The translations under genes and the position numbers were made by a program. DNA of 50,683 bases, the filler included, from Jimgerdemannia flammicorona (lineage: Eukaryota), in the NCBI GenBank assembly GCA_003990765.1. It is 2 parts of 2 records of this genome, joined end to end, with 100 filler letters (N's around TTAATTAATTAA, not from the genome) between each part and the next. Parts side by side here need not be neighbours in the genome. Positions count along the whole stretch, not along the records: positions 1 to 25,302 come from RBNJ01000854.1; 1 more part is not named here. One strand, written 5' to 3'. The notes under the pieces are model-generated. The model was not told the DNA's origin and searched no databases. It worked only from the letters and a program-made list of their open reading frames with translations. The stretch's first letter is position 1. Each line of letters opens with the position of its first letter. Positions 1,050 through 33,222 of this stretch are shown piece by piece.

Positions 1050-1414
1050 AAGATCTCAGATAAGGTACATGAATCTAATACTAACTATGACCTCTACTCA
1101 AGTATAGAAGTAACTATTAAACCAGATAAGTAAGCAATTATCAGCATAGATATTAATGAAGGTCCCAAAAGAAACCTATATCTACCTTATAGAAAGGAGT
1201 AGTCTGGCCAAGGAAGAAAGACTCTATATAGCTAGAGGAGTTATAGATCAAAAATTCAAAGATAAAATCAAGGTCCTATTATATAATACTGAATAAAAGG
1301 CTGTCAAAATTATATATATATGGAAAACAAATTGCCTAAGCTATCATTGAAGTAAAAGAAATAAATAATCTATCACTTTCCAATAGAGGAGAGAAAGCCT
1401 TCAGATTAACAGAA
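1050..1414 (+). pseudogene. dUTPase domain of gypsy A
   Basis: Motifs TNYDL (AGYDL, 1080-1094), ERSSLA (1192-1209), GVIDQKFKD (1237-1263), GKQIA*A and RGEKAFRLT (RGxxGFGSTG, 1385-1411) in the correct order, with small frameshifts. Confidence 0.85.
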
Positions 1415-4400
1415 AAGTACTCTGATAATATAAAAAAAAAAACTAAGATACAAAAGATTGTCTATATTAAAGAACCTCAAGATTGAGACCAGAAATGATA
1501 TCAGCATATTACTGATAGATATATTCCAATAAGATGATGCCTTCATGAAATCAAGATATACTGTTTTAAATATATAAGAGAATATATTATATATATTCTC
1601 AAATCCAAGAAGTATAAGCCAACTATCTCAGAATGATGAGATAAGGAAATCAAGAACATCAATGATGAAGATAGAGAAGTACAAGATTAGAAAGAAGAAA
1701 CTACTCCAGAAACAATTACTATCTGATAAGAAATCAATACAGAATGCATCTGCCTATAAGGGAAAATTGAAGGAAATACTATTGAAGTCCTAATCAACAG
1801 TGGTGCAAACAAATGTTATCTCAATTAAAAAACTGCCAACAAATTCCACCTTAAGATATAGAGAAATCCAGAAGGAAATATTGCCATATTTGGTAATAGA
1901 ACAATATAGAAACTCTCTAAGATATGTAAGAATACACTTCTATAACTTAGAAATTATACTGCAAAACAAATCTTCCATATTGCACATCTCTCTAGATATA
2001 ATCTCATTCTTAGAGATTCCTGGCTCACTTAGGAAAATCTCCACATCAATTGGTGGATCAATAAAATTTCCCTAGAAGATATCAAATTACAACCTGAACA
2101 TACTAAGAAAAAATCAAAGCCTGAGTGTAATATTATCTCTACTATTTAAATGAAGAAGCTAATTTGAAAATCAGATCAGTATATTTATATATATATAGTT
2201 AAGGAGACTCTAGAAGAGAATAATGAAGAACTCTCTAAACTCCTAAAGAATGATAATGATGAAGACAACCTTCAAGAATTACTCAAGGATTATAAAGATA
2301 TCTTCTAAGAACTCCAAGAACTACCACCAGTCTAAGCAATAGAATATAGTATCAAAACTATTCCCAGTTCTACCCCTCTTATCATAGAATCTACCAACTA
2401 GTCTAATCTGAGCTGGAGACTCTTAAGGAATAATTATATAGTAGAACTAATAAGCAAAGATCTCATCTATCTATCAAAATTACCATATAACATACTAATT
2501 CTCTTTATTTATAAGAAGGATAGAAGTCTTTATATATATATTGATTACTGAGTACTCAACAAGATCTCTATCAAGAACTGATATATACTCTTAAGAATTG
2601 ATAAATTACTTGACTAAATATATAAGGCCAAGATCTTCTTACTCACCAACCTTATATCTGGATACTATCAAATCTATATCAAAGAAGAAGATATTTCCAA
2701 GATAGCATTTTAAATAAGATTTAGACATTATGAATTTTATATGATATCATTTAGTCTCACTAATATACTAGTAACCTTTTAAATACTGATAAATGATATT
2801 TTTTGAAAATACCTTAGAGTGTTTATTCTAGTCTATCTAGATAACATTCTAGTATATAGTATAAATAACATCATGTACTAATAATATCTATAAATAGTTT
2901 TTGATATACTTTGAGAATACAAACTCTTAGCAAAGAGAAAGAAATATCACTTTTTCAAAAAGAAATTGAATATCTAGACTATATTATCTCTGAAAACAGT
3001 ATTACTATTAACCCCAAGAAGACTCAAGCAATTTACAATTGGTCTATCCCAAAAACTCTCAAGTCTCTATAAGGATTCAATAGACTGACAGAATATTATA
3101 GGAGATTTATTTAAGAATTCTCCACAATTGCTATCTTACTTACAAGCCTTATCAAAAAGAGTGCCAATATCAAAAAAAGATAAATAAAAACATATACTAT
3201 AGCTATAAATATTTTTAAGAAAATACTGATAGATATACTAATCCTGATTAGTCCTGACTTTACAGGGCCCTTTATGGTTACTACCAATGTCTTGAATATT
3301 GCCATTAGAGCTGTCCTAATATAATATGAATACTCTGTCACCTACTTGTCTCAGAAACTTAATAAGTATGAAAGAAACTATATAATATAGGATAAGGAAC
3401 TCCTTGCTATTATCTAAACTCTGTAAGTATAGTAATATTTCCTTCTTGACAAAAAGTTCACTTTATGGACTAATTATCAAGTCCTCTGATATATCTAGAT
3501 ATAGCTAATTCTTACTGAAAGATAGATCCAATAGATGCAGATTCTTGTATCCTTTAATATTGAAATCAAGTACATTACTAAAACTAAGAATAAAGTAGCT
3601 GATGCACTCTCCCAAAGAATATAAAAAAATGATCTCATAGTAATTAGCAATATTATCACTAGTCTATTTAAAGAGGTTAAAGAGTATACTAAGAATACTA
3701 ATATATAAGAAATTGCCAAATAAATCCTTAAAGAAGGCAATAATATTATAAAGAAAGTCTATAAGAATATATCAGTCCAAAATAGATATATATACCTTAA
3801 TAATACAAGAATTTGGGTCTCTAATACTCTCATTCATTTATAAATCCTACAAGAACTTTATAATATATCTATAGCTAAATATATAGATTTTGACAAGATA
3901 TATCAATATATTGCCCAAGACTTCTACTAATTCAAAATAATATCCAACATTAAGAACTATATTGTATCTTACAATATCTACAAAAGATATAAGCTCAGCA
4001 ATTAGACACTAGCTAATACTCTACAATTACTATTAAAAACTAAGAAGAGAAGAGATGTGATCATCATCTTTATTGATCATCTTAGCAAGCAGACCCACTT
4101 TGTTATAACAACCACTACATTAACAATACTGGAAATAGCTCAGCTATTTATTAACAATATATTCTGCCTTCATGGACTACCATCAACAATTATCTCAAAT
4201 TAAGATACAAAGTTCATAAGAAACTTTTGACAAGTACTCTTCAAGAGCCTAGAAATATAGTTGAAAATGTCTACAGCATACTATTTACAAACAAATGACC
4301 AGATGGAAAGAACTAATTGAATTCTGAAACAAATGCTTAGCATCTATTGTAGCTATAAGTAAAATGATTGGAATGAAAAGCTAACTCTAGTCAAATTTGC

Positions 4401-4884
4401 TTACAATAACAGCCTAAGCATAAGTATCAAGATTATACCATTCTACTTGAATCATGGACAATATCCACAAACTCCAACAGTTGCCATCTGAACTATAATA
4501 CTAATAGTATAAGAAATCACTGATACTATACAAGATAATATTCAGTAAGTACAAGATACTCTTATAGAAGTACAAAGAATACAAATAGTATATACTGATA
4601 AGAATAGAAAAGAAGTCACCTATGAAATAGGAGAATAAGTATTACTTAGTACCCAATATCTGATCCTGAGTAATATAGATCTAAAAAAGAAACTCAAACC
4701 ATGCTATATTGGACCATTCAAGATTCTTAAAAAATATAGACCTGTTGTATATAAGTTAGATCTCTCAGAATATTAGAAAGGATCTATCCAGTATTTTATA
4801 TACATATCTCAACTTCAGCTATATATCCAAAATATCTTCAAAGAAAGAACTATACTACTTTCAGATCTAATAATTATTGATCAG

Positions 4885-5065
4885 TAGTCAAAATATAAAG
4901 TTAACTATATTTTGGACCTAAGGATTACTAGTTTGGAAGAGCCACCAAGTCCACTTAGTACTACCTCATGAAATAGAAAGGATATCCTAAATATAATGCT
5001 ATCTGGGAAAAAGAAGACAACTTATTGCCAAATATAGAAGAGGTAGTAACCCAATACAGATATCT
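4885..5065 (+). pseudogene. Chromodomain at the integrase C-terminus of gypsy A
   Basis: KYKVNYILD...YYLMK*KGYPKYNAIWEKEDNL matches the consensus EYEV..ILD..YLVKWKGY..D.TWE...NL. Confidence 0.85.
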
Positions 5066-5071
5066 AATATA

Positions 5072-5670
5072 ATGGAAATTCTGATGGAATTTTCAAAAGA
5101 TAGTCATATCTCTGAATAACCTCAGTGAAAGGAAGTATAAATTTTCTAATATAACTCTGCATAGTTAACCTACCCTCTGATATAAGCACCTAGTAATAAT
5201 ACTGAGAACAAGTCAAGAATAAGATTATTACTATAGTTCTTGGAGTAATTAAATATCAATAAAACTCTACTGAACTACTATCTGTTAACATAAATATCTC
5301 TGGAGACTCAGACCCAAATAAAGCTCAATAATATCTTAGAAGAATACAGTATTTCCAGGCCTTCTGATATCAATAAGAACTCAAAGAGTACTATAAGATA
5401 GGATGTCTTATTTATCAATAAGCTACTCTCAGTACTGCTAAATAACAAATCTGTCTTTTTATTGACCATCATACTTACATAGTTGCTAAGAGACTCTATA
5501 TTCTCTTCTGCATCTAACTCAAAACTCTTGACCACCTCTGTAGAGTATTCTCTGAAAATATTACTAACTTGAGTAATGAATAATAGAGAAAAATTATCTT
5601 TTAAGTAGTCTACTATACTGTTCTTCAGTTTGATGAATATCTAGAGTTTAGTACTGAGTCTAATGAGTAG
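5072..5670 (+). pseudogene. Accessory ORF after the chromodomain (unknown function)
   Basis: The frame from 5308 reads SDPNKAQ*YLRRIQYF..EYYKIGCLIY..IDHHTYIVAKRLYILFCI*LKTLDHL; stops are TAA/TGA/TAG revertible by single transitions; similar to the LTR ORF of B. The start position is approximate. Confidence 0.65.
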
Positions 5671-5692
5671 GCTCAAGTAAAGAAGAGAAGAA

Positions 5693-6059: not shown

Positions 6060-7355
6060 AGAACTCAACACTTTCTCAAGAACTCAGAACTTAGGGTGGA
6101 TAGTTATCATTGATTATTTATAATATAGTAATTCTATCAGTATATAGTTTTATTATATTAGAACTTTTACTGGCTAAGGATGACAGATGATATTAAGAAC
6201 TTCTGTTATTTCTATAATCTATATTAAAGAAATAAAATAAGAAATTAAGTATCTTTAGAACTTCTTCAACCTCTTTCAATATCTATTAGAAATTGAGATC
6301 AGATTGCCTTAGACTTTATAGTAAGACTACTCAAAACTAACTAAAAAAAGAATACTATAGTAGTATATATAGATAGGCTCAATAAATAGATATATTTTGA
6401 ACCTACTACTACTATAGTCACTACATCAGAAATAGCAAAAATCTTCTTGCATATAGTTTTTAAACTATATAAACTACTCTCAATAATAGTCTTAGATAGA
6501 GATTCCAAATTTATAAGTACTTTCTGAAAAGCATTCTTTGAAATAATAAATACTAAGTTATTATTCTTTACTACCTACTATTCACAACTGATGGTCAGAC
6601 AGAAAGAACTAACAGAACTCTCAAACAAATATTGAGAATATTCTATAGATATAAATAAGATAACTAGAACCAATACTTCCCATTAGCAGAATTTATCTAT
6701 AATAATATCAAATAGTTATCTACTCAAATGATATCTTTCTTTATAAATACTAGTTAATCTCACAAACTCTAACAACTATAGAAAAATCTATAGTATCTGT
6801 AGCAGAAGATCTTATAGTAACTATTAGAAATATTATATAATTAGTATAAAAAGAATTATAAAAGGCTTAAGAGTAATAAGTCAAATATACCAATTAATAT
6901 AGAAGAGAAGTTCTCTTTAAGTAAGAGACTTAGTTCTCTTAGAAGTCTCTAATATAACTATAGTAAATTAGACTGGATATCCTAAATAAAGTCTATGTCT
7001 AAAATATATTGAATCCTACTTAGTTAAAAAAATAATATCTAATGTATTATACTAATTAGAACTCTCTCAAGATATAAAAAATATATAATATATTTCATAT
7101 CTCACTACTTAAGTAATATACTCTAAATCAAATATCTAATTGAGAAATACTTCTACTACAATTAATAATAATTGAAGAATAATCAGAATATATAATGGAA
7201 CAAATTTTAGACTACTGAGTTATAAAAAGAAGATGAGAAATCTCTTTAGAGTATTTAGTAAAATAGGAAGATTATCTTTTATATAACTCTATCTAGAAAT
7301 CAGAAAGAAATCTCACCAATACTAAAGAAAAGATTTTAGAATATTTAGTATAATA
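6060..7355 (+). mobile_element. Second chromovirus remnant: integrase plus chromodomain
   Basis: QIALDFIVRLLKT (~6300), TDGQTERTNRTLKQILR (~6586-6637), EYIMEQILDY..EYLVK*EDY..I*KSERNL (~7186-7315). Confidence 0.8.
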
Positions 7356-8228
7356 AGAAAAAAAAACTGTAATCTCACTGATATATTACTCATATCTCCT
7401 AATCTAGAAAAATAAATAGATAAAATAGATCCAGATAATGTGGGCTAAAGAATATATATAATATATTGAATTGGAGAAGTTGCATCTCTAACTCATAGTC
7501 TTGAGATTAATCTATTACTTACTATACTATAAGATATTAATTACTAGAATAAAATAAGTAAATATGGAAAAAGTCACAAGAAATTTTTTTTCATAAACTA
7601 AGACTGATAACCTAAAAGGATTGACTGTAAGAATGATAATAAGATCAAGACAAAAGATATAAGCTATTTAAGAAAAAAACCAGTCAAACTGAAAGTTAGC
7701 CTATTCTCTCTATACTGCTGATGAAAAATGAGACATAGATATTTAAAAAGATTTCATTAAAGAAATTCTCTAGTAGTGATTGATATCAGAATTACTTCTG
7801 ATATATAGTATTGAACACAAACTCTTTAATATATAAATTCAATATATTAGATAACTATATTATAAGTATACTACTTTCTGAGAAAAATAAATATTTCTGA
7901 ACTTTTGACTATCTAAATGATATAATAATACTATATAAAAATAAAAAAACTTAATAAGGATATTGAAAATTGAGAAAGATTATTTAATAGGAATATTAAA
8001 TCTTAAAAAAGAATAATGTAATAAAATTATATTCCAATATTATAAAGAATAATATCATTAAGCTGATATTATTAAATTCATATCACCAGCAAGATTATAT
8101 ATTAGAAAACTTAAGAATATTAGTAAGATCATAGTTGTACTAATTTCAGCTCTCTTTAGCTGGTAATATTATAGTAGTTACACTAGTCTCTATACTAGGT
8201 TAGTATATACTTATACTGATATTACGAT

Positions 8229-9733
8229 TGTTATGTAGTGGTCGCTGAGTCCTTCAAATATGCCAGATTCTCTTCAAGGTGTATCTCTTAGACTAACTCA
8301 AGTTTATTATAAGTAAGTTCTTATTGGAGTGCCTTTCCGAGGTCTTATAGTCCTCAAACTTCTTATCTTTAACTATCTTGTTATCCCTTAGATTGCTTGC
8401 AAGAAAGTGTGTGTATTGCACTAAGAAGACTGACTTTATTTTAGAGGAAATAAGAGGGGTATTTATACAAAATACAATTCAATGGTTGCTAAGATATAAA
8501 GCTAAATATAAATTCCAATAACTAAAACTACTAAGTTCCAGGGTTGGTACTGATGGTTGTACAGGTTCAGGATGCTGGCATTATTTAGTATTATATCAAA
8601 ATGCCAGTACTGGAATAATTTCGCATTACCTCAGAATATCAGTGCTGGTATTATCCAGTGTAATAAAGAACTTAGAGCAGAAAGTTCAGGATCATGGGGG
8701 CTTCATCATCATCATCACTGAAGGAGATGAGATCTGTGAATTCATCATATAGGTTGCACATTTCACCTTGATATCATGTGGGATGACATCATTGCCGATG
8801 ATGTCATCACATTCGGCTGTGACGGGGAAATCGGGAACAAGGTCTGGAGCTCTCCAGTTTATGAGGTTCTCTTCTACAAAATAGGGGACAAATGTGGGGT
8901 CTTGGGGAGATCTAACCTAGATGCTTGGGCCTTGGAATACTGAGATCAATCCTTGTAGGAATTGGTCTGGGTTGTCCTAAAGGATAGGATGCCAGAAGTC
9001 TTCTACTTCTTCACTGTTGAGGGTGATAGTAGACTAGGTTTCTGTAGCCACTCTGACTTCTAGTGCATTGATACGGCAGAATGACAGGTCTCTGAAGTCT
9101 GAGACTCTAATATACTCTAAGTTGGAGATTGACCATGGTGTATGCCTGAAGATCTGATGGATCTTCTTAGCTGTCCTCATTTTGCGTATATCCATGGAAG
9201 TGGCATCTTATAGCTCTTGGGTGCTGGCCTGTGGGAACTCCTGGCAGAGAAGGTTTCTTATTTCATACTCCTACCACATTTGGAGGTATTTGGTAGCAAT
9301 GGTGATCTTTGTTTCCATTTCGTAGCAGTAGAGAATAAAGTGATAAGGGTCTGCAGTACTCAGGTTGATACTAGGAGTCCTTCTTGAGTGGGTCCCCATG
9401 GCTCTTCTGATGTCTTGGAATATCCTTTCCTCAACTGAGATACCTTGGTGATTCCTTGACCTTGAGGTTTAGCAGGCAGTAGGTATTTTTGTTTGTGGTA
9501 AGTCTTTGAGCTACATATTTTGGGATTGGTGGTTCTTGTTAGTTACTGCTACTGCGGTTCCTTGATCCTTCTTTTATATTCTTCAGGATGCTTATACTGT
9601 GGTTACAATGACTCACAGTTAGTCATCATTGCTTACCTTATATGCTGTATGATCTTCTTGTACTTCGATCTGGTGGCTTGCAAGGAAAGGCTGTCTCCTG
9701 TGCTGATGTCATCATTCTGGGGTCACTGTTACA
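8229..9733 (-). repeat. 3' LTR of element B (1505 bp)
   Basis: Direct repeat of 16634-18173; TATA-like tgtataaatacccc on the minus strand at ~8455-8470. Confidence 0.95.
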
Positions 9734-9769
9734 TCTTCTTCCTGAATAAGGATCTTCTCGAGCATCCTT

Positions 9770-10965
9770 TTTTTTTTTTTTTTTTTTTTTTTAACAGACT
9801 CATACTTATCCTGCAGATTTTTATTGGAAGGGAACCTAGACTATATAGACTAAAACCCTCCCCCACCACCCACTAAGCACTGCCCCCCTATTAACCTAGG
9901 CTAGCTATTATCCAGCAGCTCGACCATACCAGGTGCAGTAGGGCCAATTAGGCCTGTACCTCATTCTGCACACCATGCTCTCCCTACTACCAGGGGAAAC
10001 CCAACTATATGCCAATGACCAAAAGCATACACCTGAGAACCCAATATATGTACAAGGCCATACCTGAGCTGAATAGAATAGCTCCTGCCACTCCAAAGAG
10101 AATGACAGGCAAAGAAAAACTCTCATCAAAGTACAACACGGTGGGTAGGGCCTGGTTCTCTCAGTCAAGGTGAGTAAAGGACTTACACGTGAGGTAGGAG
10201 GAAACCCCCAATACCCCACTACTCAAGCCTGTGGACCTCAATCATGTTGCCATGTCAGCTTCTGGTTCCAGTTAAGTGCAGCCAAGACACCTGAAATGGG
10301 TAGCCTTGGGCCTTCTGACCCCCCCTGATGACTGGGGCCCAACCCTGCTGACTGCCAAAAGAAGCCAATAGTGATACCTACCACCTAACTGTGCCACACC
10401 AATTAAAAGGCCCCACCAAAGCAGCACCTACCCCAGCCCCAATGACTGCCCCCAGCCTGGCACCCTACTGGTTCACTGTTATTGCCCTTCCTCCTATCTG
10501 TGACAGCCATCTCCCCTCCCATCTCAACAATACCCGAAAAACAGTCACCTATACCAGAACTGTGCTTGCTGGGAAGCTCGTCAAAGCCAGAGGGCCCCAC
10601 TACAGGCACCGAGGACCTGCAGGTAACCTATACTAAGCACTTGATGCCCAAGGTCGGCCGACTCTCTATGTAGCCTGAGATACATCGAGACAACTCCTTG
10701 CTGGCAATGGCAAAAGGAAGAAGGCACCGCACCAAAACAGATATACCCCAGATGCAGCCAGAGGCACTAGAATTTGCGAAAAAGTGGAGGAAGCACCGAT
10801 CCAACATCGATAAAGGGGCAACTCATCACTATTGCCCTCCTCCCACAATGCCCCTGCAGGCACAGCAAACTAACTTGAGGTAGAGGGGGTAATAATAGGG
10901 GAAAGGGGACTCAGAAGGTTGCCTACCAAACCTTGTGACTGGTAAGGTAGTGGAGAAAGGAGCTG
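9770..10965 (-). mobile_element. Non-autonomous polyA retroposon, copy 2 (complete, ~1.2 kb), inserted into element B
   Basis: T-run 9768-9792 (polyA tail on the minus strand) with AATAAA upstream of it; 15 bp TSD ttctcgag[ca/tg]tcctt at 9755-9769 and 10966-10980; no RT or endonuclease motifs seen. Confidence 0.85.
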
Positions 10966-11257
10966 TTCTCGAGTGTCCTTATTCATTGGTCCAGTTCTGA
11001 AAAATTTGCTGATCCCATAATCTCTGGCAAGGGATTGAAAAGTAGTATTTATGGGCTGGCATCTTCTCTTTGTATTTTGGTGTGATAGTGAAGGGTCACT
11101 CCCTTCATATAGAGCAAGGGCCTGATTCTGATCTTGACCAATTAGTTGATGGTTCAAACTTCTCTGACTTTGAAAGTCTCATGGATGAGTAGTTGCCAGT
11201 GCCGTATCCCTTAGAGAATGGTCCAGACAGATAGCCTGTTGGTCATGGGACATGCTG

Positions 11258-14200
11258 TTACAATTTGCAAACTAGAACCTCATGGGTGGTCATCATGTTT
11301 TGCTTCTCTTGTATAGGTTCATGGTATTTCTTGAGTCTATTCCTATGTACCATGGTAGGCAGTATGGTCCCTGAGATTTTTCTAAGTCAGAAGGTAGTTC
11401 CCTTGATATCTTGTACATAGAAGGGTTCTTCCCATTTGGGCTCCAGTTTTCGTGACCATGAGGCTTCTACCATATTGTGATACAGTAGAACCTTTTCTCC
11501 AATTCAGATGGGTTCTAGGGTCTTGTAATTCTTTTCCACATTCTTCCTTATCAGTGCTTATGACTTGGTGATGTAATCTTCAGCCTTCTTCCTGATTTGG
11601 TGTAGTCTCCAGATTTCTGCATCAACCTGTCTCCAAGTTAGGTCTAGATTTGTGGCTGAGGTTCTATCAGAATCTTCTTCTCCGAAGAGCAGCTCTCTTG
11701 GGGTAAAATGTGTACTCTGTGACTATATGTCTCATAGGACAGAGAGGGTGGTTGGGAGATAGTTATCCCAATTCTCATATATCTCTGAGATCTTCGCTAG
11801 GATGTTCTTGAGGGTCTTGTTGGTTCTTTCTGTCTGTTCATTTCCTTGAGGGTGGTACACAGTGGTCTTGATGTGCTGGATCTTATATTTCTGATACATT
11901 ATCTCATGAAATCCATTGACAAATTCCATTCCACAGTCTGTTGTGATTTGCTTTGGTGTCTTGATGATTTCTCAGTATAGGAAGTCAGCTATAGAGAGGA
12001 CATTGGCTTCTTGTAATACTCCTGACTCTATCCATTTGGTGAAGAGGTCTATAATAACTATAATATAGTGGTTTCCTGATAGTATTACTGGTAGTGGTTT
12101 AATGATATCCATTGTGATGTGGTGGAAGGGGATAGGCTCAATTCTTGATAACCTGGGTGCCTGGTCTTGCTGATCTTGTTTCTATTTTTGGCACTTATCA
12201 CACTCTTTGATAAATTGGTGCAGGTCTTCTTCCATCTTGGACCACCATATGGTTCTTCTTATCTTATTGTATGTGTTGATTCCTCCTAAGTATCCTTGCT
12301 CATGTACTTCCTTCATTACTTGATACTTCTTGTATTCAGGTATTACTAGTTTTCCTCCTTTTCTGAGTGTAGTGTTGTCTAATTCAAACTATTTCCAAGT
12401 CCGGTTGATGATGGTAATTGTCCAGGGTTCAAGGTGGTTGGGCATCTTCTGCTGCCCAAGGTGGCTGATTAATCCATAGTATAGCTCCTTATTCATGTTG
12501 AATAGTCTTGATGGGGGTGTTTCAGGGTATTCTCGAGAGTGCATCAGCATTGGTGTTGCTCTTTCCTGAGTGGTGCTTGACAGTACAGTCATACTCTTGC
12601 AGCCTGTAGATCCATCTGATATATATTCCTTTGGGGTTCAGAGTGTGGAATAGCCAGGCAAGAGCAGAATGGTCTGTTTGAATGGTGAAGTGTTTCCCAG
12701 CTAGGTAGTAGTGGAACTTATCTACTGCTCAGACTACTGCTAAGTATTCAAGCTTGTATGACTTGTAGTTCTGTTCTGCTCTGTGGGTACCTCAGCTTGC
12801 ATAGGAGATGATATATTTATGTCTGTCTTTCTTCTGAGCTAGGACTGCTCCAAGTCCTATAGTACTCGCATCTGTCTGCAGGATGAATTCTAGGTTCCAG
12901 TCTGGTCTTCTGAGGATGGGTGCTTGGGTCAATCTAGTCTTGAGTTTATTGAAGATTTCTTGGTGCTCCTTGGTCCATTCGAATTTGGTCTTCTTCTTCA
13001 GTAGCTTGTAGATAGATGCTGCAATGTTGGAGTATCCTTTGATGAATCTTCTGTAGTAGCTGGCCAGTCCAAGGAAGGCATGGACTTCTGTGGTTATTCT
13101 GGGTCTCAGGTAGGCTGCAATAGCCTTGATCTTCATGAGGTCTGTGTGGATTCTGGTCTGGTTGATGAGGTGTCCTAGGTAGGTGATTTCTTGAGCTGCA
13201 AACTTGCATTTCTTGGGCTTGATGTAGAGGTCATGCTCCTTGAGCCTCTTGAGGGCTAGCTGTATGTGATTGACATGTTCCCATGTAGTATTGCTGAAGA
13301 TGATCATATCATCAACATAGACAAAGAGCCATTTTCCAATCTCATTGCTGAAGACTCTGTTCATCATTTGCTGGAAACTTGCTAGGGCATTGCACATTTC
13401 AAATGGCATTCACAGATAGATATAGGTGGCATCAGGTGTAATGAAGGCTGATTTCTCACTGGCATCTTGAGTGAGACCGATCTAATGGAAGCCAGAGAAC
13501 AGATCCAAGGTGGTGTAGTATTTGGCTTTTCTTCCAAGAGTAGTAAGGATTTCTTGAATATTCGGCAAGGGCTGCCTATCCTTCTTGGTGATGGTATTGA
13601 GCTTCCTATAGTCAATGCAGAGTCTTGGCACAAACTCTCCAGGCTTGCTTTCTTTCTTTGGGGCTAGGACAATGGGTGAGGCCCAGGGGCTGATAGCTTG
13701 CTTGATGATTCCAGCTTCTTCCATTTCCTTGAGTTCTGCTTGTAGCCACTCTCTATAGGCAGGTGGTATGGGTCTGGTTTTCTGATAGATGGGCTTGGTA
13801 TCACCAGTGTCAACTTTGTGGTAGTACTTGGGTTCTTGATTGTGGATATCCCTAAAGTCTGTAGCAAGTACTCCTTCATTCTGGTGCAGGATCTTGAGAA
13901 GTTGTTCCTCCAGGGGAAAGTTTTCTCCAATGGTATATGTGTGCTTGTTTTGGTCCTTGTCTTTCTTATACTCAAGTTTGTAATCTTGGTGGTGGCATAG
14001 ACTCCTCTTCTAGTAGATCCAAAGCCTTATTCTCCTCTCTTGGTCTTGATGAGTTTGATGGCTTCTATGATCTTGGGCTTCTTGATTTCATGGATTAGCA
14101 TCTGGCCAATCCTGTCATGCTTCTTGACTTCGAAGGGGGTGGTGTAGTTGTGATTTCTGACTATGAGAAAGATCTTGCCAGTATAATCAGGGTCAATTAC

Positions 14201-16513
14201 TCCTCTTTCAACTGAGATTTCACTTTTGGCCAGACTGCTCCTAGTCTTGATGATTCTGGCATGGTTTTCTGACAGCTTGACTCCAATTCTGGTACCAAGT
14301 AGGGTGGTGGTCTGTGGTTCAAGGGTAGCATCTTGAATGCTAGCAAGGTCTATTCCTATGGCTCCTTCAGTTTTATATTCTAGGATCTTGGCTTCAGGGT
14401 GAAACTTCTTGACCTTGAGGGTGATGTCTGATTCTTGTTCCTCCTCATTGTCACTGTCAGCTTGAAGCTCTGGGGGCTGGTCATCTTCTTCGGCTTTCCT
14501 TTTTGCTTTGGCAGCTTCTTGCTTATGTTTCTGTTAGTGGATTTTCCTGACTTCACTGATACAGGACCAGCAGTCATTCAGGTATTCAGAGCAGTACATT
14601 CTAGTACCATGGGGGCATCTTCCTTAAGGGGCATAGCCATCAATGATCTTATTGTATCACTGCTCATCTGTGAGCTTGGGTGTCTTGCTCTTGTTCTTGT
14701 TTACTGAGTGCATGAAGACCTCTGTGTCTTCTTCATCTCCTTCCTCTATGTCTGGTAGGACTCCTTTGTGGACATTGATAGAGACTCATACCTTTCTTCC
14801 TCTGTAGTTAATCTGCATCTTCTAGGCATTGAGGTCAATGATGGCCTTGGCCTTGTGAAGCCATTGGTTGCCAATGAGAATATTATAGTTGGTGGTGCTT
14901 GTAACAATCACATCTACTGGGATGGTAGCTCCTCCTATCTTGATGGGGACTTCTCGAATTTTGCCAAGAGGGGTAGCTTGTATACCATCTGCTGTGACAT
15001 AGACTATCTTGGTGGACTCTTCAATATCCCAACCTAGGCAGTCAATTGCCTTCTTGCTCATTAGGCATCCTCCAGCACCAGTATCAATGATGGCATCAAA
15101 GATACAGTCTTTGATCTGGCAGGGGGTATAGGCTGATGTCTTGTGCTGGTCTTTGGATTCTTCACCTGAGTTCTTAGATTCTTTCTGTACATTGTGGGCT
15201 TCTACAATCTTGTACTCTTGATTCTTGGTGGTAGTTGCAAGTCCTACTCTCAACTGTTGTCTGAAGGCAGGAACTTCAGCTAGCTGTCCAAAAGTGGCAT
15301 TGACCTTCTGTTCCTTAAGGTCCTTGTAGATATCATACTGGTGGATCTTGGTCTTATGCAGCTTCTGTTCCTTCTTGCTTTCGCTTTCTCCTGAGACTGG
15401 AGTAGTGCCTTCTATGATTTGGCAGACAGCTTCATCTAACTCCATGTCTTGATCAATCTCCTCAGGTTGAGTTTTGCTTTAAATAGTGACAGCTGGGGTC
15501 TTCTTTGGTCTTCCAACTGGCTTGCTGTTGCTCTTCTTGTCATAGGGCTTGGACCAGATTCTGGTACCTTCAGTAGCAGGGTAGAATTCGAGCTCCTCAT
15601 AGTATTCTTCATCATCAGTGTCACCAATCTCCTCGATGACTACTGCATTGGTTTGTTCTCTGGTTCTGCTAGCATTGCTTGGTTGGGCTTTGCATCTTAT
15701 TTTGGTCATGCAACTCTTTGCATAGTGGCCTTCTTCTCTATATCTAAAGCATGTGATATTGCATTCTTCTGTAGCAGCTACAAATCTCTGCACTGGTCTC
15801 CTGTTAGCACTTCGGACTTCTCTAACAACATTACTAAGATATATAGTTATCTCAGCAAACTACTTGGCGAGTTCTTCCACTGGATCAGCTTTGGCTGTCT
15901 TGGGGTAGGTGGGGTTGGTTGTCTATTTACGACTATGCCAGGTAAGATACTAGTTGGCTTTGATGGCTCCATCTTGATGCCAGTTATTTTCTCCATTGAG
16001 TGTTTGACAGGGTGTCTGGCAGTCCAATATCTCTATGCAAAGACCACTTTCTGATCAAGGATCAGTGCAGCTGGGGTAGACTAGATTGCTAGAGCAATTT
16101 CAGGGTGAACTCCTTTGAGGAAGGTTGAATCTGCTATTTGTTCCTTGAGGTGGTCATCATAGCCAGCCAAGACAATCTGGTGGCAAATTTAGGTATAGAA
16201 TAAGTTGGGATCTTCACTAAGTCTCTGGCAGATAGTATTGAGTTGATCCTTGAGAGCTTGCTTGATCTCTTCAGTATAATATATTGTTCTGAGAAAGACC
16301 TTCATGTTGGTAAGTTTGGCTGCACCAGCATCAGTAATGGTGGCTACATTGAACTTGTCTCTGGCAGATCCTCTAAGGCTGACTGGTAGAAGAGCCAATT
16401 GAGCATCCACACCAAGAGCTCGTATAGTGGCAAATTGTTCAAAGTCTTCAATGAAGGTCAGGATTGACTCTTCAGTAGTATATCTATAGAATGTGGGGGG
16501 GATGCATTTCCAT
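11258..16513 (-). pseudogene. gag-pol polyprotein of element B
   Basis: Starts MEMHPPTFY; zinc knuckle CFRYREEGHYAKSC; PR AIIDTGAG; RT RLCIDYRKLN, LDLFSGFH, YVDD; RH LQTDASTIGLGAVL; IN YHPQGNEQTERTN and KLEPKWEEPF; many transition-type stops. Confidence 0.95.
14009..14419 (-). pseudogene. dUTPase domain of element B, between PR and RT
   Basis: One frame reads LKVKKFHPEAKIL..GAIGIDL..RSSLA..GVIDPDYTGKI..DRIGQML..RGE*GFGST, i.e. all five dUTPase motifs, in frame with PR. Confidence 0.95.
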
Positions 16514-16613
16514 CTTGTCTTGAATTCTTGCAGGGGTGACTCTTATAGTCAGGGTAGTTGTTGTAGGGATTGTTCATTTTTCAGCTTGAAAGTGAGGGAT
16601 TCATCTTGAATCA

Positions 16614-16630
16614 CCAGTCAATGGGCACCA
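16614..16630 (-). promoter_or_regulatory. Putative primer-binding site of element B
   Basis: TGGTGCCCATTGACTGG begins 3 nt after the CA end of the 5' LTR; the tRNA is not identified. Confidence 0.6.
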
Positions 16631-16633
16631 AGT

Positions 16634-18173
16634 TGTCACGTAGTGGTCGCTGAGTCCTTCAAATATACCAGATTCTCTTCAAGGTGTATCTCTTAGACTA
16701 ACTCAAGTTTGTTATAAGCAAGTTCTTATTGGAGTGCCTTCCTGAGGTCTTATAGTCCTCAAACTTCTTATCTTTAACTGTCTTGTTATCTCTTAGATTG
16801 CTTGTAAGAAAGTATGTATATTATACTGAGAAGACTGACTTTATTTCAGAGAAAATAAGAGGGGTATTTATACAAAATACAATTCAATGGTTGCTAAGAT
16901 ATAAAGCTAAATATAAATTCCAATAACTAAAACTACTAAGTTCCAGGGTTGGTACTGATGGTTGTATAGGTTCAGAATGCTGGCATTATTTAGTGTTACA
17001 TCAAAATGCCAGTGCTGGAACAATTTCGCATCACCTCAGAATACCAGTGCTGGCATTATCCAGTATTATATGAGAATACCAGTGCTGGCATTATCCAGTG
17101 TAACAAAGAACTTAGAGCAGAAAGTTCAGGATCATGAGGGCTTTATCATCATCATCACTGAAGGAGATAAGATCCGCAAATTCGTCATACAGGTCATGTG
17201 TTTCGCATACCTCGATGTTGCGCAGAATGACATCATCACCGATGACATCATCATGTTCAGCTGTGGTGGGGAAATCAGGAACAAGATCTGGAGCTCTCTA
17301 GTCTATAAGGTTCTCTTCCACAAAATAAGGGACAAATGTGGGGCCTTAGAGAGATCTAACCCGAATGCTTGGGCCTTGGAATACTGAGATTAATCCTTGT
17401 AGGAATTGGTCTGAGTTGTTCTGAAGGATAGGATGCCAGAAGTTTTCTACTTCTTTACTGTTGAGGGTGATAGTGAACTGGGCTTCTGTAGTCACTTTGG
17501 CTTCTAGTGTATTGATAAGGCAGGATAACAGGTCTCTGAAGTCTGAGACTCTAACATACTCCAAGTTGGGGATCGACTATGGTACATGCCTGAAGATCTG
17601 ATGGATCTTCTTAGCTATCCTCGTTTCATGTATATCTATGGGAGTGGCATATTGTTGCTCTTGGGTGCTGGCCTGTGGGAACTCCCAGCAGAGAAGGTTT
17701 CCTATTTTGTACTCCTGCCACATTTGGAGGCATTCAGTAGCAATGGTGATCCTTGTTTCCATTTCGTGGCAGTAGAGAATAAAGTGATAAGGGTCTGCAG
17801 TACCCAGATTGATGCTAGGAGTCCTTCTTGAGTGGGTTTCCATGGCTCTTCTGATATCTTAGAACATCCTTTTCTCAACTGAGATACCTTGGTGATTCCT
17901 TGACCTTGAGGTTTGGCGGGCAGCAGGCATTTTTATTTGTGGTAAGTCTTTGAGTTATTTTGGGATTGGTGGTTCTTGTTGGTTGCTACTACTGCAGTTC
18001 CTTGATCCTTCTTTTATATTCTTCAGGATGCTTATACTGTAGTCACAATGACTCATAGTTAGTCATCATTACTTATCTTATATGCTGTATGATCTTCTTG
18101 TGCTTTGATCTGGTGGCTTGCAAGGAAAGGCTGTCTCCTATACTGATGTCATCATTCTGGGGTCACCATTACA
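16634..18173 (-). repeat. 5' LTR of element B (1540 bp)
   Basis: Direct repeat of 8229-9733 with one extra ~35 bp tandem unit at ~17040-17075. Confidence 0.95.
17112..17930 (-). pseudogene. LTR-encoded ORF, 272 codons (second copy at 8672-9486)
   Basis: MPAARQTSRS...ALMILNFLL*; its four internal stops are CAA, TGG, CAA and TGG in the other LTR copy. Confidence 0.8.
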
Positions 18174-19898
18174 CTATAAATATATCTCAAAAATAGACTA
18201 AAGATGCTAAAAATAGTATAAGACTAAATTAGTCTATAACTATATTGATGTTATAAGCTAAAATAGTCTATAATATTATAGAAACTAGAGTATATATATC
18301 AAAATTAGCCTACTAATATTATTAGCCCTCTAATGTCAGAAGCTAGTAAGATCTTTAAGATTAGTGACTTCATGAGCTAAACTAAACTATAACAAGTAAT
18401 GAAATTATAGTTATTATATACTAAAATAGTTTATTTAGTAAATAAATAAAAGATCAACAATTAGCTTTAGAAAATAATCAATCAAATAGTCATGCAAACT
18501 TATAAACATATACTCTAAAAAAGTAAAACTAAAATATAAACAAATTATGCTCTCTCTTTTTAAATATATCTATGAAGTCCTCTGGAAAGCAGTCTTTAAT
18601 TATTAATACTAATACTATTGGGAATATGTTAATCTTAATATTTATATATGATATAAAGTAGTTTTTAAAAACTGCTGATGAAATTATTACTAGAATATAA
18701 TCAGTTATAAGATACTTCCAAATATTAAGAAACTACTAAACTGATAGACTTTTAGTAAAGAGTAGTATGATCTTATCAGAGGTGGTAGATTAATATAATA
18801 TCTCTATATTTAGATAATATATTTTGATTTATATTTATTAATTACTCTGAAAAATATTCTATACTATTAGTAGTATAAAAGAAATAACTCCTGCAGAAAT
18901 TGATAGTCTTAATAATTAATTGATAGGTCAAATTGAGCTAAATCTTATAAATAACTTTAATCTATAAGAGTATTATAATGATAATGCTTAGTTATGTAAA
19001 AATAATATCTTTAATAGACTCATTATTCTATTTCAAACACTCACTTCTCAGATCCAGATATCTATAAATATCTAGCTATAGAGATTTTCTATACTAGCTA
19101 ATATGAGACTAGTCTCACTAGTATCTATATTATTATCTGAGATTATAAGATCAGAACTAGACTCTAAAAAGTCTAGTACTATATCATCTAAATCTGAGAC
19201 TCTAGAGAAGGTCTTAATCTCTTTTATAGAAGTCTGTTACTACTATATAATATAATACATTATATCATAAAGTCTTAGTCAAAATTTAGAATAATTATCT
19301 CATAGTTAGTATATAAAATAATATCATAAAATAGCATTATTATAACTTAGTAATATCATTATTATACATAGTATAAATTTTATCTCATTTCTAGTAACCT
19401 TCTGTCTCATATCTCTTAGCCAATAGTTAGTTAATATTCAAAGATCTTCAAAATATATAAATATCCCTAGAGAAGCAACTCAATAAAAGACAAAATATTC
19501 AATTTGAAAAAAGAGAACAATTAAGACTTAAGTCTATAATATAGATAATCTTTGAATGATCTTAGATTAAAAGACTATATCTAAATTAGATATCCTAAAC
19601 TCTATAAATACTTAAACTCTGAAGGATCTAAATATAATTATTAGAACTAAACTATATTTAAAAAAGATATACTAAAAGACTTAGACTTTAAAGAATTAAA
19701 ATCCATAATTGTCAAATGTTATCTAAGTCTACCAGAAGAAGACTGGATCAATTAGAAGTACAACAGACAGTGCTTAGATATTAAGACAGCCATTTTCTCA
19801 AACTAAAGACACCTGACATAAGTGCTTTTAAGTTATTGATAATAAGGATCATTAACTTAAAGAGTATAATTACCATAACAGTGAAGATACACTATTAT

Positions 19899-20090
19899 AT
19901 TATAGCTCTCATCACAACTTTTATTATAGCCCTCATTGTAATTCTCATTATAGTTATTATTATAGTTCTCATTGTAGCCCTTATTGTAGTCCTTATTATA
20001 GTTCTCATTATAGCTCTCATTATAGCTCTTGTTATAGTTTTTATTTTAGCCCTCATTACAGTTCTTATTATAGTCCTTACTATAGCCTTT
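19899..20090. repeat. Degenerate 12 bp tandem repeat (atagccctcatt) inside an unassigned decayed repeat region
   Basis: About 16 units visible; explains the hydrophobic ORF 19836-20132. Confidence 0.85.
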
Positions 20091-21939
20091 CTAATTGTTT
20101 CATTGCTCTCAAAATCTGTTATTTATATATAACATAGTTAGTAATCTCAACAATCTATTCTTTATATTACTTATACTACTGCATGTACAGAGCACCCGGT
20201 CATAGCAATATCTCTGAGCAATCTGTATTAGCAATCTGCAAGAAGCGTGAATGAAACGTCCGACAGTATTACTACAATCCCCAACCTCGGTGGAAGAAAT
20301 ATAAAATCAACGCCTTTGTCAAGGAAAGGGCATGGCGTTGTTGCTTTGGATGCGAAGCCCGAACATGTCTCCTGTCTTCCTGACGCTGTTGGAATGGCTA
20401 TTATTCTATGCATTGGTTCATATTATCATTAGGTGAGCATTGGTCTATAATGCTTACTCTCTTAATTATTCGAGCTCATCAACAGCCAACAGCTCCGTAG
20501 GCATCCCACATCATCTCGAGTCTAGTATTGTTAACTGGCATTTTGGGAGCTGCCCGTAACGACTAGATTTCACTTGGCCACTTCATCATGATGCGCGTGT
20601 GGTTGGTCTTGGCCAATCAGCATCATCAGCATCATCAGCATCGCCATCCCCATCCCATGAAACTCCCCCAATCTATAAAAACCCCCAGGGTTCTTGAACT
20701 AATTTTCCATTGCTAGAGTGCCTGTTTGCTGGTGTAGTTGGAAACAAGTTTCTCGAATAGAAACGAATTTTTAGCATAGTGAACTCGTTTGTTGTTATAG
20801 TGTAATCTGTATGGGTTTGTTGTTACAGCGTTATGTTTGTGACATTGGTTTTTGGGGCTCTGCTCCTTGACTTAAGTTGGTTTGTCTTGGCTTCAGATGA
20901 GAAATCGGGTGACTGCAAAACCACAAACAAATACAGCATCAAACAACTACATAATTACCTGGTCTATGGCCGTAATCCAACCGAACGCCCCTTCACAGAC
21001 ATTAATTTGAGGGACATCTAATACGTGACTATCGGATGGCTGCTCACGGAGCGTATTAGGGCGGTAACAAGAATATGAAATCCTGCGACAGGCCAATATG
21101 CCCAATACTTTGCAACCGCTATCGGGACCGGAAAACGGCCGCGAAAAGAAAATTATATGGGTTTTCGAAGAGGCGCCGGAGAATTGTTACTGTGCACTAA
21201 TTATACTACATCTATTATTATTGTTTTGTCTTCATCCAACCAGCACTGTGTAAATATGCAAAGCCATTTCGTTTTTATTTCATTATATTGGTTTAGTGCT
21301 GCCGGAAAATGCCCTCAATGGTATCCTGATTATCGAGCGCCTCCGCGATACTAGATAGATTGTGGGACTTTATGCATGAGAGGTTGTTTGGTGCATGGCA
21401 TAGTGGCCAATATTAAGAAGGGGAAGAGGCTCAAGGAGATGCTGGGGAAGGACACCGATGTGGAGATGATGAACCTTGAGAGAGGACCGTGCTGGTGAGG
21501 TACAATTCGCCGGCGAGTTCTTGAAATGAGACACGGTTGAAATGTGTCATCGCATCGGACACCCTATCATTCCCCTCCAATCTTGAGCCCGTAAGCAAAT
21601 TTTTATTCGGAGTTTGGGCCAACGTGCGTGTGCTTGTCAAAGTCCTGACCTTCGTAGCATCTTTCTGCTCGGAATTCTTGCTCAAATGATAGATATGGAT
21701 GGTCTCTTGTGCAGGCGCAGGAGTGGTACAGGACCTGAAACAAATAATGGTGATGTCAGCCCAAAGCCTGCTCCGCTAATTACTCCCTCTTTCGCTTTGC
21801 AGAATGCCTGGGTGCTATTACGACAGCCCACGCAAACTCGCATGGCACCCACACGAATCTTGCCAAACCCACGTGAATCGTAATGACCTGCATACGACCA
21901 TGGCAACAGTTGTCTTCATATATAACAGCTGACCAGATA

Positions 21940-22270
21940 CGTGCGAGCTGGCTGGGCTAGCGTGCTGGCTGGTGATATATGTGTGGCGGCACACAGGCTG
22001 GCGAGATGCGTGCAGGCTGGTGAATTGCATACGGACTGCCGAGATGCATGCGGGCTGGCGAGATGCGACTCTTGCCGCTCTCAAATCTGTTCATATGTTA
22101 AACATTCTTAAGGGTTTATTCAATAAACTAGCATAATCATTGGTACCTCCAATCGCTCTTCTACGGAGTGGGCAGGCGTATGGGCTAGTGAGATGGACGC
22201 ATGTGGGGCTAGCGAGATGCGGGTGAGATGCATGCGGACTTGCAAGGCGCATTTGGGCTGGCGACATGGT
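21940..22270. repeat. Degenerate ~19 bp repeats (gggctggcgagatgcatgc) in two clusters
   Basis: Units at ~21945-22070 and ~22180-22268; CpG is retained. Confidence 0.6.
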
Positions 22271-22845
22271 TGTGTGGGCTTACATGCCAGCACTGTGTGA
22301 AGCATGGCGTACAGCTATGTGATGAATTCAAGTTCACGATCAGTGCATGTTCGCTTATCCTCAGACAACGACATTGGTTACGAGGGGACGCAGCCTTTGA
22401 AGAAAAATGTGCCTTGACCGAGTTGAATCCTCGCCCCTATGTAAAGTGTAATGAATAATCAAGCCCACGATTTGCGAGTGTTCGTTCACTTTGTTCATCT
22501 TATCGGGTTTGATATGATTGGTTTGTGGCAGAATTAATGGCCGAAACCTTTTTTTGATTCTTGGCCATAGCAATAGCGTCGATCACGCCATGTCAGACTG
22601 ATGAAATACCGAGCTCTGTACGGTTAAGGTGAGAAATTTTCCCTTTTGGAGTTGTGGGGAGGATGTTGGGAGACAAGCGTAAACGACACAGCCGCTCCAT
22701 AACGACGCAATTGAGCAGACCAACACGATCACCAAGCACGAATGCGTCTGACGCGAAAAAAAAAAAAAAAAAGCGTGTTCAAGGAAGCACCGCGCAGACG
22801 GCTATATACATATGTATACGTGACGCGAGGCCTCCTGTCGCACAA

Positions 22846-23560
22846 CATGGATGCTATCTCACTTGCTCTATATCTTGTCATGCATATGGCACAGGTGGTA
22901 GATACAAGTAATATTATTCTTTCCTCATTCAATAGCTAACCACTTGAGTCATATTCTGTCATGAATGTGCACACACCTGGATCAAGGGCAATAACCCCTG
23001 CACCAAAATTAGGATCTTGGCTCTCAGCCTACACATCAAGTAGCATAGAAATACAGAGATAGAATTCACTGAGACAATTCATCACAAGCTGACTACCATA
23101 TTCAATATTAGCTGGTAAAGGCTCAGTAGCTCTCATATTGAGGAGAAAAGCAAATTTATTACAAGATTTTCCCAGTGCTTAGAAAGTAATATAATTGACT
23201 GCTGAGAGTCCTTCTTTATGTAAGACTTTATCTGAAAACTCTTCTGATCAGTAGTAAAGTTTGATATATATCTCTTGAGAAGATCATTCATGGTCTTATC
23301 ACAGATATCATATAGTATCTTCAGAATTTACTTATTATTGTTATTGAAGTTAGAGATATTGAGATATATATACTATACTTACAGATCCTTCTTATAATAC
23401 TTTATATCTTTATTTTGAATTATAGTAAGATACTGATTATAAGTTAACTGTGCTATCTTTATTTATGTTCAGAGTTTTGCTACTCATTATAAATAGAGAA
23501 AAGTCAGATATATCAAACTTTATCTATTAGAGATTTTTCTTCTTTTATCTTTTTTTTTAA
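22846..23560 (-). pseudogene. Fanzor2/TnpB-like RNA-guided nuclease, N-terminal half up to RuvC-I and the following helix; C-terminus missing
   Basis: Minus frames read TYNQYL..ILKILYDICDKTMNDLLKRYISNF..KKDSQQSIILLSKHW..EPLPANIEYGSQLVMNCLSEFYLCISM..GVIALDPGVCTFMTEYD (22948-22998)..AIE*GKNNITCIYHLCHMHDKI*SK. Confidence 0.8.
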
Positions 23561-25302: not shown

Positions 25303-25402
25303 NNNNNNNNNNNNNNNNNNNNNNNNNNNNNNNNNNNNNNNNNNNNTTAATTAATTAANNNNNNNNNNNNNNNNNNNNNNNNNNNNNNNNNNNNNNNNNN
25401 NN
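25303..25402. other. Artificial assembly linker/gap
   Basis: 44 N + TTAATTAATTAA (stops in all six frames) + 44 N = 100 bp. Confidence 0.95.
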
Positions 25403-25603
25403 TGAACCAATAATTTTTTTTTTTTAGATTTTTTTTTAAAGATAAAATAAAAATTTAAAAACAATAAATTTAATATTTTTAAATATCTCTAATATAAAAC
25501 TATAATATATTATAATATAAAATATATTTATTTAGAGTATTTTTATTTAAATAATTAAAATATAAAATTTAATAAAACATTGGTTCAGTTTTGGAACATA
25601 CTG
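25403..25603. mobile_element. Tc1/mariner-type MITE, left TIR cut by the gap
   Basis: Right end cattggttcagttttggaacatactg followed by TA; its reverse complement (..tgaaccaat) reappears at 25403; AT-rich interior; inserted in retroposon copy 3. Confidence 0.6.
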
Positions 25604-26067
25604 TAATAGCTATCTCCCCTCCTATCTTAATAATATCTAAAAAACAGTCACCTATATCAAAACTGTGCTTGCTGGAAAGCTCACCAAAGCCAGAGGGCCC
25701 CACTATAGGTACTAAGGACCTGCAGGTAATCTATACTAGATACTTGATACCTAAGGTCAGCTGACTCTCTACATAACCTATGATACTCTAAGACAATATC
25801 TTGTTAGTGACAGCAAAAGAAAGAAGATACTACACTAAATGAGTATATTCCAGATGCAGCTGAAGGTACTAGAATCTGCAAAAAAGTGGAGAAGACACCA
25901 ATCTGACACTGATAAAAGAGTAACTTATCACCATTGCCCTCCTCCCACCATGCCCCTGCAGGCACAGCAAACCAACCCAAGATAGAGGGGGTAATAATAG
26001 GAGAAAGGGGACTCAGAAGGTTGTCTACCAAACCTTGTGACTGGTAAGGTAGTGGAGAAAGGAGCTG
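25604..26067 (-). mobile_element. Non-autonomous retroposon, copy 3 (5' part)
   Basis: Colinear with 10501-10965 and ends at the same ggagaaaggagctg sequence. Confidence 0.85.
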
Positions 26068-33189: not shown

Positions 33190-33222
33190 ATTGATGATAT
33201 ATGTGATGTCGTCAATCAGCCT

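Follow-up and report, generated by a model that had tools for sequence, protein, structure and literature searches.

Both LTRs of element B, a decayed dUTPase-bearing Ty3/gypsy element of Jimgerdemannia flammicorona, contain an open reading frame (the LTR ORF) that was ancestrally intact and is conserved at the protein level in other assemblies (Table 1). The analysis covered one stretch of 50,683 nucleotides, filler included, referred to here as the window. A sequence-only reading of this DNA had placed two further stretches in the same ORF family: stretch A, which follows the chromodomain remnant of a chromovirus (element A), and stretch D. Our results suggest that the LTR gene of element B is real and that stretches A and D are probably AT-rich DNA degraded by repeat-induced point mutation (RIP), whose resemblance to the LTR ORF lies near the level of chance for A and at that level for D.

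The window is a mosaic of decayed retroelements, in which G+C switches block by block between 41-54% and 17-30%, and the AT-rich blocks bear the dinucleotide signature of RIP (TpA/ApT 1.03-1.24). An island of 46% G+C at 20300-23000, with low RIP indices (TA/AT 0.65), no second copy in the window and no Pfam match on its open frames of at least 75 codons, is possibly the only non-repeat DNA in the window. Across an AT-rich tandem array at 19875-20102, whose period is 12 bases (an 84-base unit in 12 overlapping registers), a frame of 115 codons stays open (19785-20129).

Table 1. Positions of the features discussed, counted along the window
Feature	Position	Strand	Remarks
Chromodomain remnant, end of element A pol	4941-5057	+	Pfam Chromo, E 0.001, 19.3 bits (curated cut-off 25.1)
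Second candidate polypurine tract of element A	5127-5135	+	GAAAGGAAG then TATAAAT
Stretch A	5308-5670	+	RIP-like AT-rich DNA between the chromodomain of A and the polypurine run at 5679-5692
Antisense open frame	5311-5640	-	110 codons stop to stop; first codon ATA; longest open frame in element A
Marginal family match in stretch A (N-terminal half of the LTR ORF)	about 5380-5586	+	Profile positions ~49-118
Candidate polypurine tract of element A	5679-5692	+	AAAGAAGAGAAGAA then TATAATG
Element B	8228-18173	-	Decayed dUTPase-bearing Ty3/gypsy element, 9.9 kb
3' LTR of element B	8228-9733	-	1506 bp; begins TGTAA
LTR ORF, 3' LTR copy	8668-9489	-	Start codon ATA; 6 stops in aligned part; frameshift in acidic tail
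Polypurine tract of element B	9734-9743	-	AGGAAGAAGA, directly before the 3' LTR
Internal part of element B, including gag-like region	9744-16616	-	Pfam on stop-to-stop frames
Integrase zinc domain of element B	12185-12388	-	Pfam
RT and RNase H of element B	12525-14009	-	Pfam
dUTPase of element B	14030-14533	-	Pfam; between protease and RT
Protease of element B	14825-15478	-	Pfam
PBS-like sequence of element B	16617-16630	-	TGGTGCCCATTGAC, after the 5' LTR
5' LTR of element B	16633-18173	-	1541 bp; begins TGTAA
LTR ORF, 5' LTR copy	17112-17930	-	ATG plus 272 codons; LTR positions 244-1062
Stretch D	35333-35600	-	AT-rich DNA; TA/AT index 1.13

The LTR ORF of element B and its protein family

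Element B is identified as a Ty3/gypsy element on the minus strand by its LTR pair, its PBS and polypurine tract, and the domain order protease, RT, RNase H, integrase. Pfam searches of its stop-to-stop frames recovered no chromodomain, and no target-site duplication was recognizable. The two LTRs are 87.8% identical over the 1545 columns of a local alignment, and transitions account for 143 of the 146 substitutions between them. The apparent insertion site lies ~870 bases downstream of a second chromovirus fragment (6272-7359, plus strand), which is 5'-truncated and extends from the integrase core to the chromodomain; because this fragment is only 58% identical to positions 3967-5078 of element A, with 16.5% transversions, it belongs to a different family from A.

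The window also holds three copies of a ~1.1-kb repeat (2-1044, 9880-10965 and 25601-26071), which are 74-83% identical and whose right-hand ends agree within ~20 bases. The copy in element B, on the minus strand, fills the gap from the last ~35 pol codons to the polypurine tract, and the other two adjoin unrelated DNA, namely the dUTPase of element A at 1150 and DNA of no assigned identity at 26086. This repeat could be a 3' internal module of B-like elements or of non-autonomous derivatives, and it is probably non-coding, since the amino-acid identity between its copies (55-71%) is below their nucleotide identity. Two runs of 44 N (25303-25346 and 25359-25402) lie in the AT-rich block that adjoins the third copy.

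The two copies of the LTR ORF are both interrupted, at different codons. The copy in the 5' LTR has four internal stops, at codons 24, 118, 195 and 211, all of which are Q or W in the 3' LTR copy, and the six aligned stops of the 3' LTR copy are all Q or R in the 5' LTR copy. Every aligned internal stop in either copy can be reached by a C-to-T or G-to-A change. As all 10 are sense codons in the sister copy, the frame of ~272 codons was intact in the LTR when the element inserted, and its place inside the LTR means that it is present twice per element. One of the W residues is pertinent to the sequence-only reading, which quoted HVPWSIPNL for B: in the copy at 17112-17930 this W is a TAG stop, and W is found only in the other LTR copy. 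Matches to the 3' LTR copy by hidden Markov model (HMM) are split over two frames (8728-9486 and 8675-8764), and the 5' LTR copy matches the family profile at 3.7e-103 to 2.1e-163. Both copies are also found by profiles built from external members only (E 1e-99 to 1e-127); with one of these, A4, the two E values are 3.7e-103 and 3.6e-103, and the matches are full-length and include the conserved start and the core.

Public protein collections contain about a dozen intact relatives of the LTR ORF, at identities down to 24-30%. A word-indexed search returned five of them (57-82% identity, E up to 0.01), a profile search of 1.84 billion cluster representatives returned six proteins, five of them credible, and a profile search of a 5.8-billion set returned 11 relatives, with further members added by cluster look-ups. 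The sixth protein from the cluster representatives, P0014, which is repetitive and has an E value of 6e-4, was discarded as a family member. The metagenome locus L001, on an AT-rich contig without direct repeats, had a profile score of 10.0, then 5.3, and was uninformative, its match resting on the search pattern itself (LNSEEVEDF). A scan of genome contigs and viral contigs found no relatives.

An alignment of 16 sequences (A5) falls into three subclades, in which identity to the first sequence drops to 24-30%. Common to all three are MPxxR at the start, the blocks W-H/Q-E/D-Y-E-I and A-x-x-x-H-Q-[IV]-F-R-H-x-P-W, and a core, LE..VA....S.I..S....L.DN....L....F.GP.I, which is the best-conserved block; each subclade also has a long acidic tail of which the character is kept and the sequence is not. 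R-to-C and R-to-H changes separate some members, as expected for multicopy DNA exposed to C-to-T mutation. The protein, of ~270 residues, is acidic overall (pI 4.5-4.9). Its tail segment has a pI of 4.1 in all four members tested, and the pI of residues 1-60 is 11.8 in P0004, 10.0 in P0015, 7.9 in P0012 and 6.5 in the N-terminally truncated P0023, such that the N-terminus is basic in two of the three full-length members tested.

Might this frame nevertheless be no functional gene, but a part of a long LTR that is open by chance and enters gene predictions in those copies where it is open? Every relative either has no name or is called 'hypothetical'; the predictions come from JGI and ENA collections, and their contigs are short (600-4848 nt, with a single one of 19434 nt). 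Most of these contigs measure 0.6-1.6 kb, about the size of the element B LTR, and are plausibly collapsed repeats. Neither a domain nor a fold was found for the B frame. Gene callers, moreover, list open copies only, which qualifies the openness of the relatives. However, the distant relatives, at 24-30% identity, still match at profile E values of 6e-11 to 1e-63 and have open frames of 200-342 residues, with a conserved start and conserved W, P, G and F positions, and diverged non-coding DNA would be neither open nor recognizable in translation. Selection on the protein is argued by this recognizable similarity with open frames at such divergence, and we consider it very unlikely that the B frame is not a functional gene.

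The sequence-only reading was borne out in describing the ORF of B as an uncharacterized accessory ORF inside the LTR that is not env. The window copies have no Pfam family; a Pfam match to ATG5_HBR (E 0.028, in three of nine members) was treated as chance. A profile search of the PDB with the LTR-ORF family gave no match at E up to 10, and in the ESM Atlas nothing scored above 0.83 by features and the best structural TM was 0.33. No transmembrane segment was found in the six members tested, in which the maximum Kyte-Doolittle 19-residue mean is 0.59-1.07, below the usual cut-off of 1.6 that an env-like ORF3 would be expected to exceed. Two AlphaFold2 models, from 9 and 16 sequences, have mean pLDDT values of 49.2 and 48.9, which lend no structural support to any function of the product; at this low confidence, the N-terminal two-thirds is predicted to be helical and the tail disordered. 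The LTR ORF probably encodes a soluble acidic protein with a predicted helical middle and a tail that is probably disordered, and this protein belongs to a small orphan family.

Stretches A and D in relation to the LTR-ORF family

According to the sequence-only reading, a single accessory ORF family recurs in three elements and was exchanged between gypsy lineages. The peptide strings on which this was based are present in the DNA (A, plus frame 0 from 5308; B, minus strand from 17930 to 17112; D, minus frame of 35658). The shared pattern drawn from them does not hold as worded: the spacing in A-K-x3-[LI]F is x4 in both A and B, neither of which fits x3, and D has 'IS' in place of 'IG', lacks 'AK' and fits only a relaxed, post hoc motif. 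The strict form of the motif occurred in 0 of 400 simulations, a count that is no test of it because the motif was derived post hoc from the same sequences. Claims of a shared ORF need profile tests against matched nulls, because peptide motifs picked by eye recur easily in RIP-degraded DNA of 25-30% G+C and because reverting transitions can explain any stop codon. In such tests, B alone was solid, its copies being recovered at the E values given above; D had no match, and A scored 0.8 bits, with an empirical p of about 0.007-0.017.

In stretch D, no profile of the LTR ORF found a match at E cut-offs up to 10-1000, and blastn gave no link from D to A or to the LTR of B. D lies 15 bases beyond the 5' boundary (35318) of the adjoining RT-bearing repeat and is flanking DNA rather than part of that repeat, because the homology of the two repeat copies stops at 35318/43913. 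These copies form an inverted pair of ~4.7 kb (30599-35318, minus strand, and 43913-48609, plus strand; 71% identical). An RVT_1 domain (30658-31344, minus strand) marks one end, and the strand bias is extreme, the GC skew reaching 0.5 in magnitude. The best explanation of the likeness of D to B is that it is at the level of chance.

Stretch A is less clear. Its score against the profile of external members only was 0.8 bits (iE 0.086) and against the 16-sequence profile -0.6 bits (iE 0.19), far below any accepted threshold. The alignment covers ~68 residues with a single one-residue gap, and profiles A1, A4 and A5 all gave A as their best non-self match in the six frames of the window. A score of 0.8 bits was reached in 2 of 300 Markov-simulated AT-rich 20-kb sets; on the real DNA, the score of A was reached by 2 of 150 column-permuted profiles, none of which gave two such matches; and the score of A with the 16-sequence profile was reached in 5 of 300 simulations. 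On these null counts we regard the match of A to the LTR-ORF family, as read from the DNA, as marginal, and with p values of this size across the three nulls chance is not comfortably established.

A true relationship would mean that A is a heavily RIP-mutated, truncated relative of the B LTR ORF, in a family common to chromovirus A and the non-chromoviral dUTPase element B, with D unrelated. Besides the rank and the null counts of the match, its location immediately 3' of pol in the sense orientation, as expected of an accessory ORF, is consistent with this, as are several mismatches at conserved positions that, by eye, are compatible with transitions (H to Y, R to C, P to L and D to N). Several observations point the other way. 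Adding more true members to the profile lowered the score of A from 0.8 to -0.6 bits. The most conserved part of the family gives no match downstream: in six frames of the window, the core-only profile matched only the two B LTR copies and nothing in A. With 10 stops in 121 codons, the sense frame of A is interrupted as often as expected of random DNA of this composition, and it is less open than the +1 frame. Within the LTR-ORF family, the K and G of the 'YKIG' that figured in the sequence-only reading are not conserved. We therefore consider a true relationship of A to the LTR ORF rather unlikely. The proposals of one family in three elements and of its exchange between gypsy lineages are thus not supported: D has no detectable similarity, and A has a marginal match to the N-terminal half, with no core and with stops at random density.

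A second sub-threshold match to the N-terminal half lies at 18650-18943 on the plus strand (0.9 bits, iE 0.08; -2.7 bits with the larger profile), 476 bases outside the 5' LTR of B and opposite to it in strand; the DNA there is AT-rich and has no Pfam domain. Were B removed, the second chromodomain fragment would lie ~1.3 kb upstream of this match and share its strand. Being as good as the match of A and located in DNA without a recognizable element, this second match indicates that such scores occur here without support, and it counts against a true relationship of A. A blastn likeness of 18638-19646 to the integrase fragment at 6365-7353 (59%) is probably compositional, because the stretch matches its own reverse complement and has no Pfam match.

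Comparisons of nucleotides did not strengthen the case for A. No blastn link was found among the tail of A, D and the LTR of B, no sister copy of stretch A is present in the window, and the tail of A showed no similarity above the null to the tail of the second chromoviral fragment after removal of the B insertion. A transition-tolerant alignment of the tail of A with the LTR of B scored 125, a value reached by 0.75% of simulations; it was rejected as support because it is long and gap-ridden, with offsets running from 5067 to 5001 as against 4935 for the protein alignment. The RIP-aware schemes comprised a best-ancestor BLOSUM scheme, which operates in the linear regime, and two log-odds models with a rate of C-to-T and G-to-A change, which are confounded by local G+C, as indicated by the regions 24.7-25.3 kb and 37.6-38.3 kb, where both strands, and several frames, give matches. 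Neither A nor D stood out among AT-rich tiles in these scans, which, although weak, also weigh against a true relationship of A.

The place of stretch A within its element depends on which polypurine tract is the real one: with that at 5679-5692 the stretch would be internal, and with that at 5127-5135 it would lie inside the LTR of A. The 5' LTR of A lies outside the window. Homology of A with the second chromoviral fragment stops at 5078/7359, shortly after the chromodomain.

If there is a coding feature here, it might instead run on the other strand, as an additional chromoviral ORF, antisense and placed after pol and before the 3' LTR, an arrangement described for brtn of Boty in passages of PMC7264820. 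The 110-codon antisense frame falls exactly between the chromodomain and the polypurine run, its first codon is one G-to-A change from ATG, and antisense frames of at least 110 codons arose in only 3.65% of 2000 simulated A-like sequences. This percentage is nevertheless weak before correction for looking, the only in-frame ATG leaves ~55 codons, a word-based protein search found no homologue and Pfam no family, and the parallel with brtn is one of arrangement. We judge an antisense gene at this position to be decidedly unlikely, and RIP-degraded AT-rich DNA is the reading that we prefer for stretch A.

Placement and possible expression of the LTR ORF

The LTR ORF is probably an accessory gene lying in U3. 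In both LTRs, TATAAATA is kept at LTR position 1302 (1267 in the shorter copy) and is followed 27 nt later by AATAAA at position 1329, with ~210 nt remaining to the LTR end. This pair is downstream of the ORF, and in the usual geometry the U3/R border falls just after the pair. A second TATAAA is present in both LTRs at position 156, 88 nt upstream of the ATG; U3, R and U5 are assigned here from consensus motifs alone, and RIP can create TATAAA.

Alternatively, the ORF of B could lie in the transcribed leader (R-U5), with genomic RNA starting from the TATAAA at 156 and the ORF as its first cistron, upstream of gag. The presence of this TATAAA in both LTRs, close before the ATG, and the A-rich context ahead of the ATG are compatible with such a leader, but the pair at 1302/1329 is the stronger one and gives the usual U3/R/U5 geometry, and it would be unusual for gag to be preceded by a ~1.35-kb leader containing an ORF of 272 codons. 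We consider a leader position unlikely and retain U3 as the probable location.

An ORF in U3 would ride at the 3' end of the genomic RNA. It would more likely have its own transcript, however, which may start from the upstream TATAAA (156) and end at the LTR poly(A) signal. Such an LTR-internal transcript, with a predicted start near 185 and a predicted end near 1350, would be the most economical route of expression; the alternative is a 3'-terminal position on genomic or spliced RNA, and a leader position appears less likely. With its own transcript, any LTR of this kind, even a solo one, would amount to a gene complete in itself. We speculate, with low confidence, that the product may serve the element as a regulator or adaptor, for instance by activating transcription or countering silencing via its acidic tail. 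The pointers to such a role are those of protein composition, that is, the basic N-terminus in two of three full-length members and the acidic tail in four of four. In a more far-reaching form of this model, the LTR of the family would itself be a gene with its own TATA and poly(A) signal, every LTR, solo or not, would express a trans-acting acidic regulator, and the degraded copy in A would be a module that moved between distant gypsy lineages; this combination strikes us as quite improbable.

Relation to known systems

Passages of PMC2864245 place the dUTPase at varying positions in fungal Ty3/gypsy elements and name as dUTPase-bearing PosPlaTy3-3, -4 and -5 of Postia placenta, elements of Phanerochaete chrysosporium and Tmt1 of Tuber melanosporum; an 'add. 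ORF' is marked in the legend of Figure 3 of the same source. The accessible text of the reports on such elements (PMC2864245) describes no ORF inside an LTR, and, among the papers listed by phrase searches of the open literature, judged by title and the start of the abstract, none describes a gene inside the LTR of a fungal element, Repbase-type catalogues and subscription papers being outside this scope. In PosPlaTy3-5, the dUTPase lies between protease and RT, as it does in element B, whereas in element A (1150-1293, plus strand) it lies upstream of the protease, which was recognized by eye (LINSGAN near 1700-2000).

Extra ORFs of unknown function that stand beside gag-pol in Ty3/gypsy elements and are conserved among copies are described in parts of PMC7264820 and PMC8365987. 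Examples given for these additional ORFs (aORFs) include brtn of Boty (Botrytis cinerea and Sclerotinia sclerotiorum) and those of the plant elements Grande1, RIRE2, Retand and PvRetro13; brtn is presented in passages of PMC7264820, PMC4227169 and PMC8365987 as an antisense extra gene between pol and the 3' LTR of the chromovirus Boty. Like the aORFs, the ORF of B is extra, family-specific and without an assigned function, and belongs to a Ty3/gypsy element. The aORFs occupy the internal region, either after pol and before the 3' LTR or ahead of gag, and many of them run antisense, whereas the ORF of B lies wholly in the LTR, in the sense orientation, and is hence duplicated; it is position that sets them apart.

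Additional ORFs are known in LTR retrotransposons and are almost always internal. A conserved sense gene wholly inside an LTR is an arrangement familiar from a few retroviruses, of which the accessory genes sag of MMTV and nef of HIV/SIV occupy the U3 region of the LTR. If the LTR ORF is such a gene, each element would carry it twice and solo LTRs would retain it, and this would change the view of what solo LTRs can do in a genome. Element B has no env, and the LTR ORF has no sequence or fold relation to sag or nef in the Pfam and PDB searches; like them, it is a sense frame that would lie in or overlap U3, and it is downstream of the polypurine tract in its 3' copy. We regard the LTR-embedded orphan gene as a modestly interesting variation on the known theme of the additional ORF, in which the new feature is the position of the gene inside the LTR.
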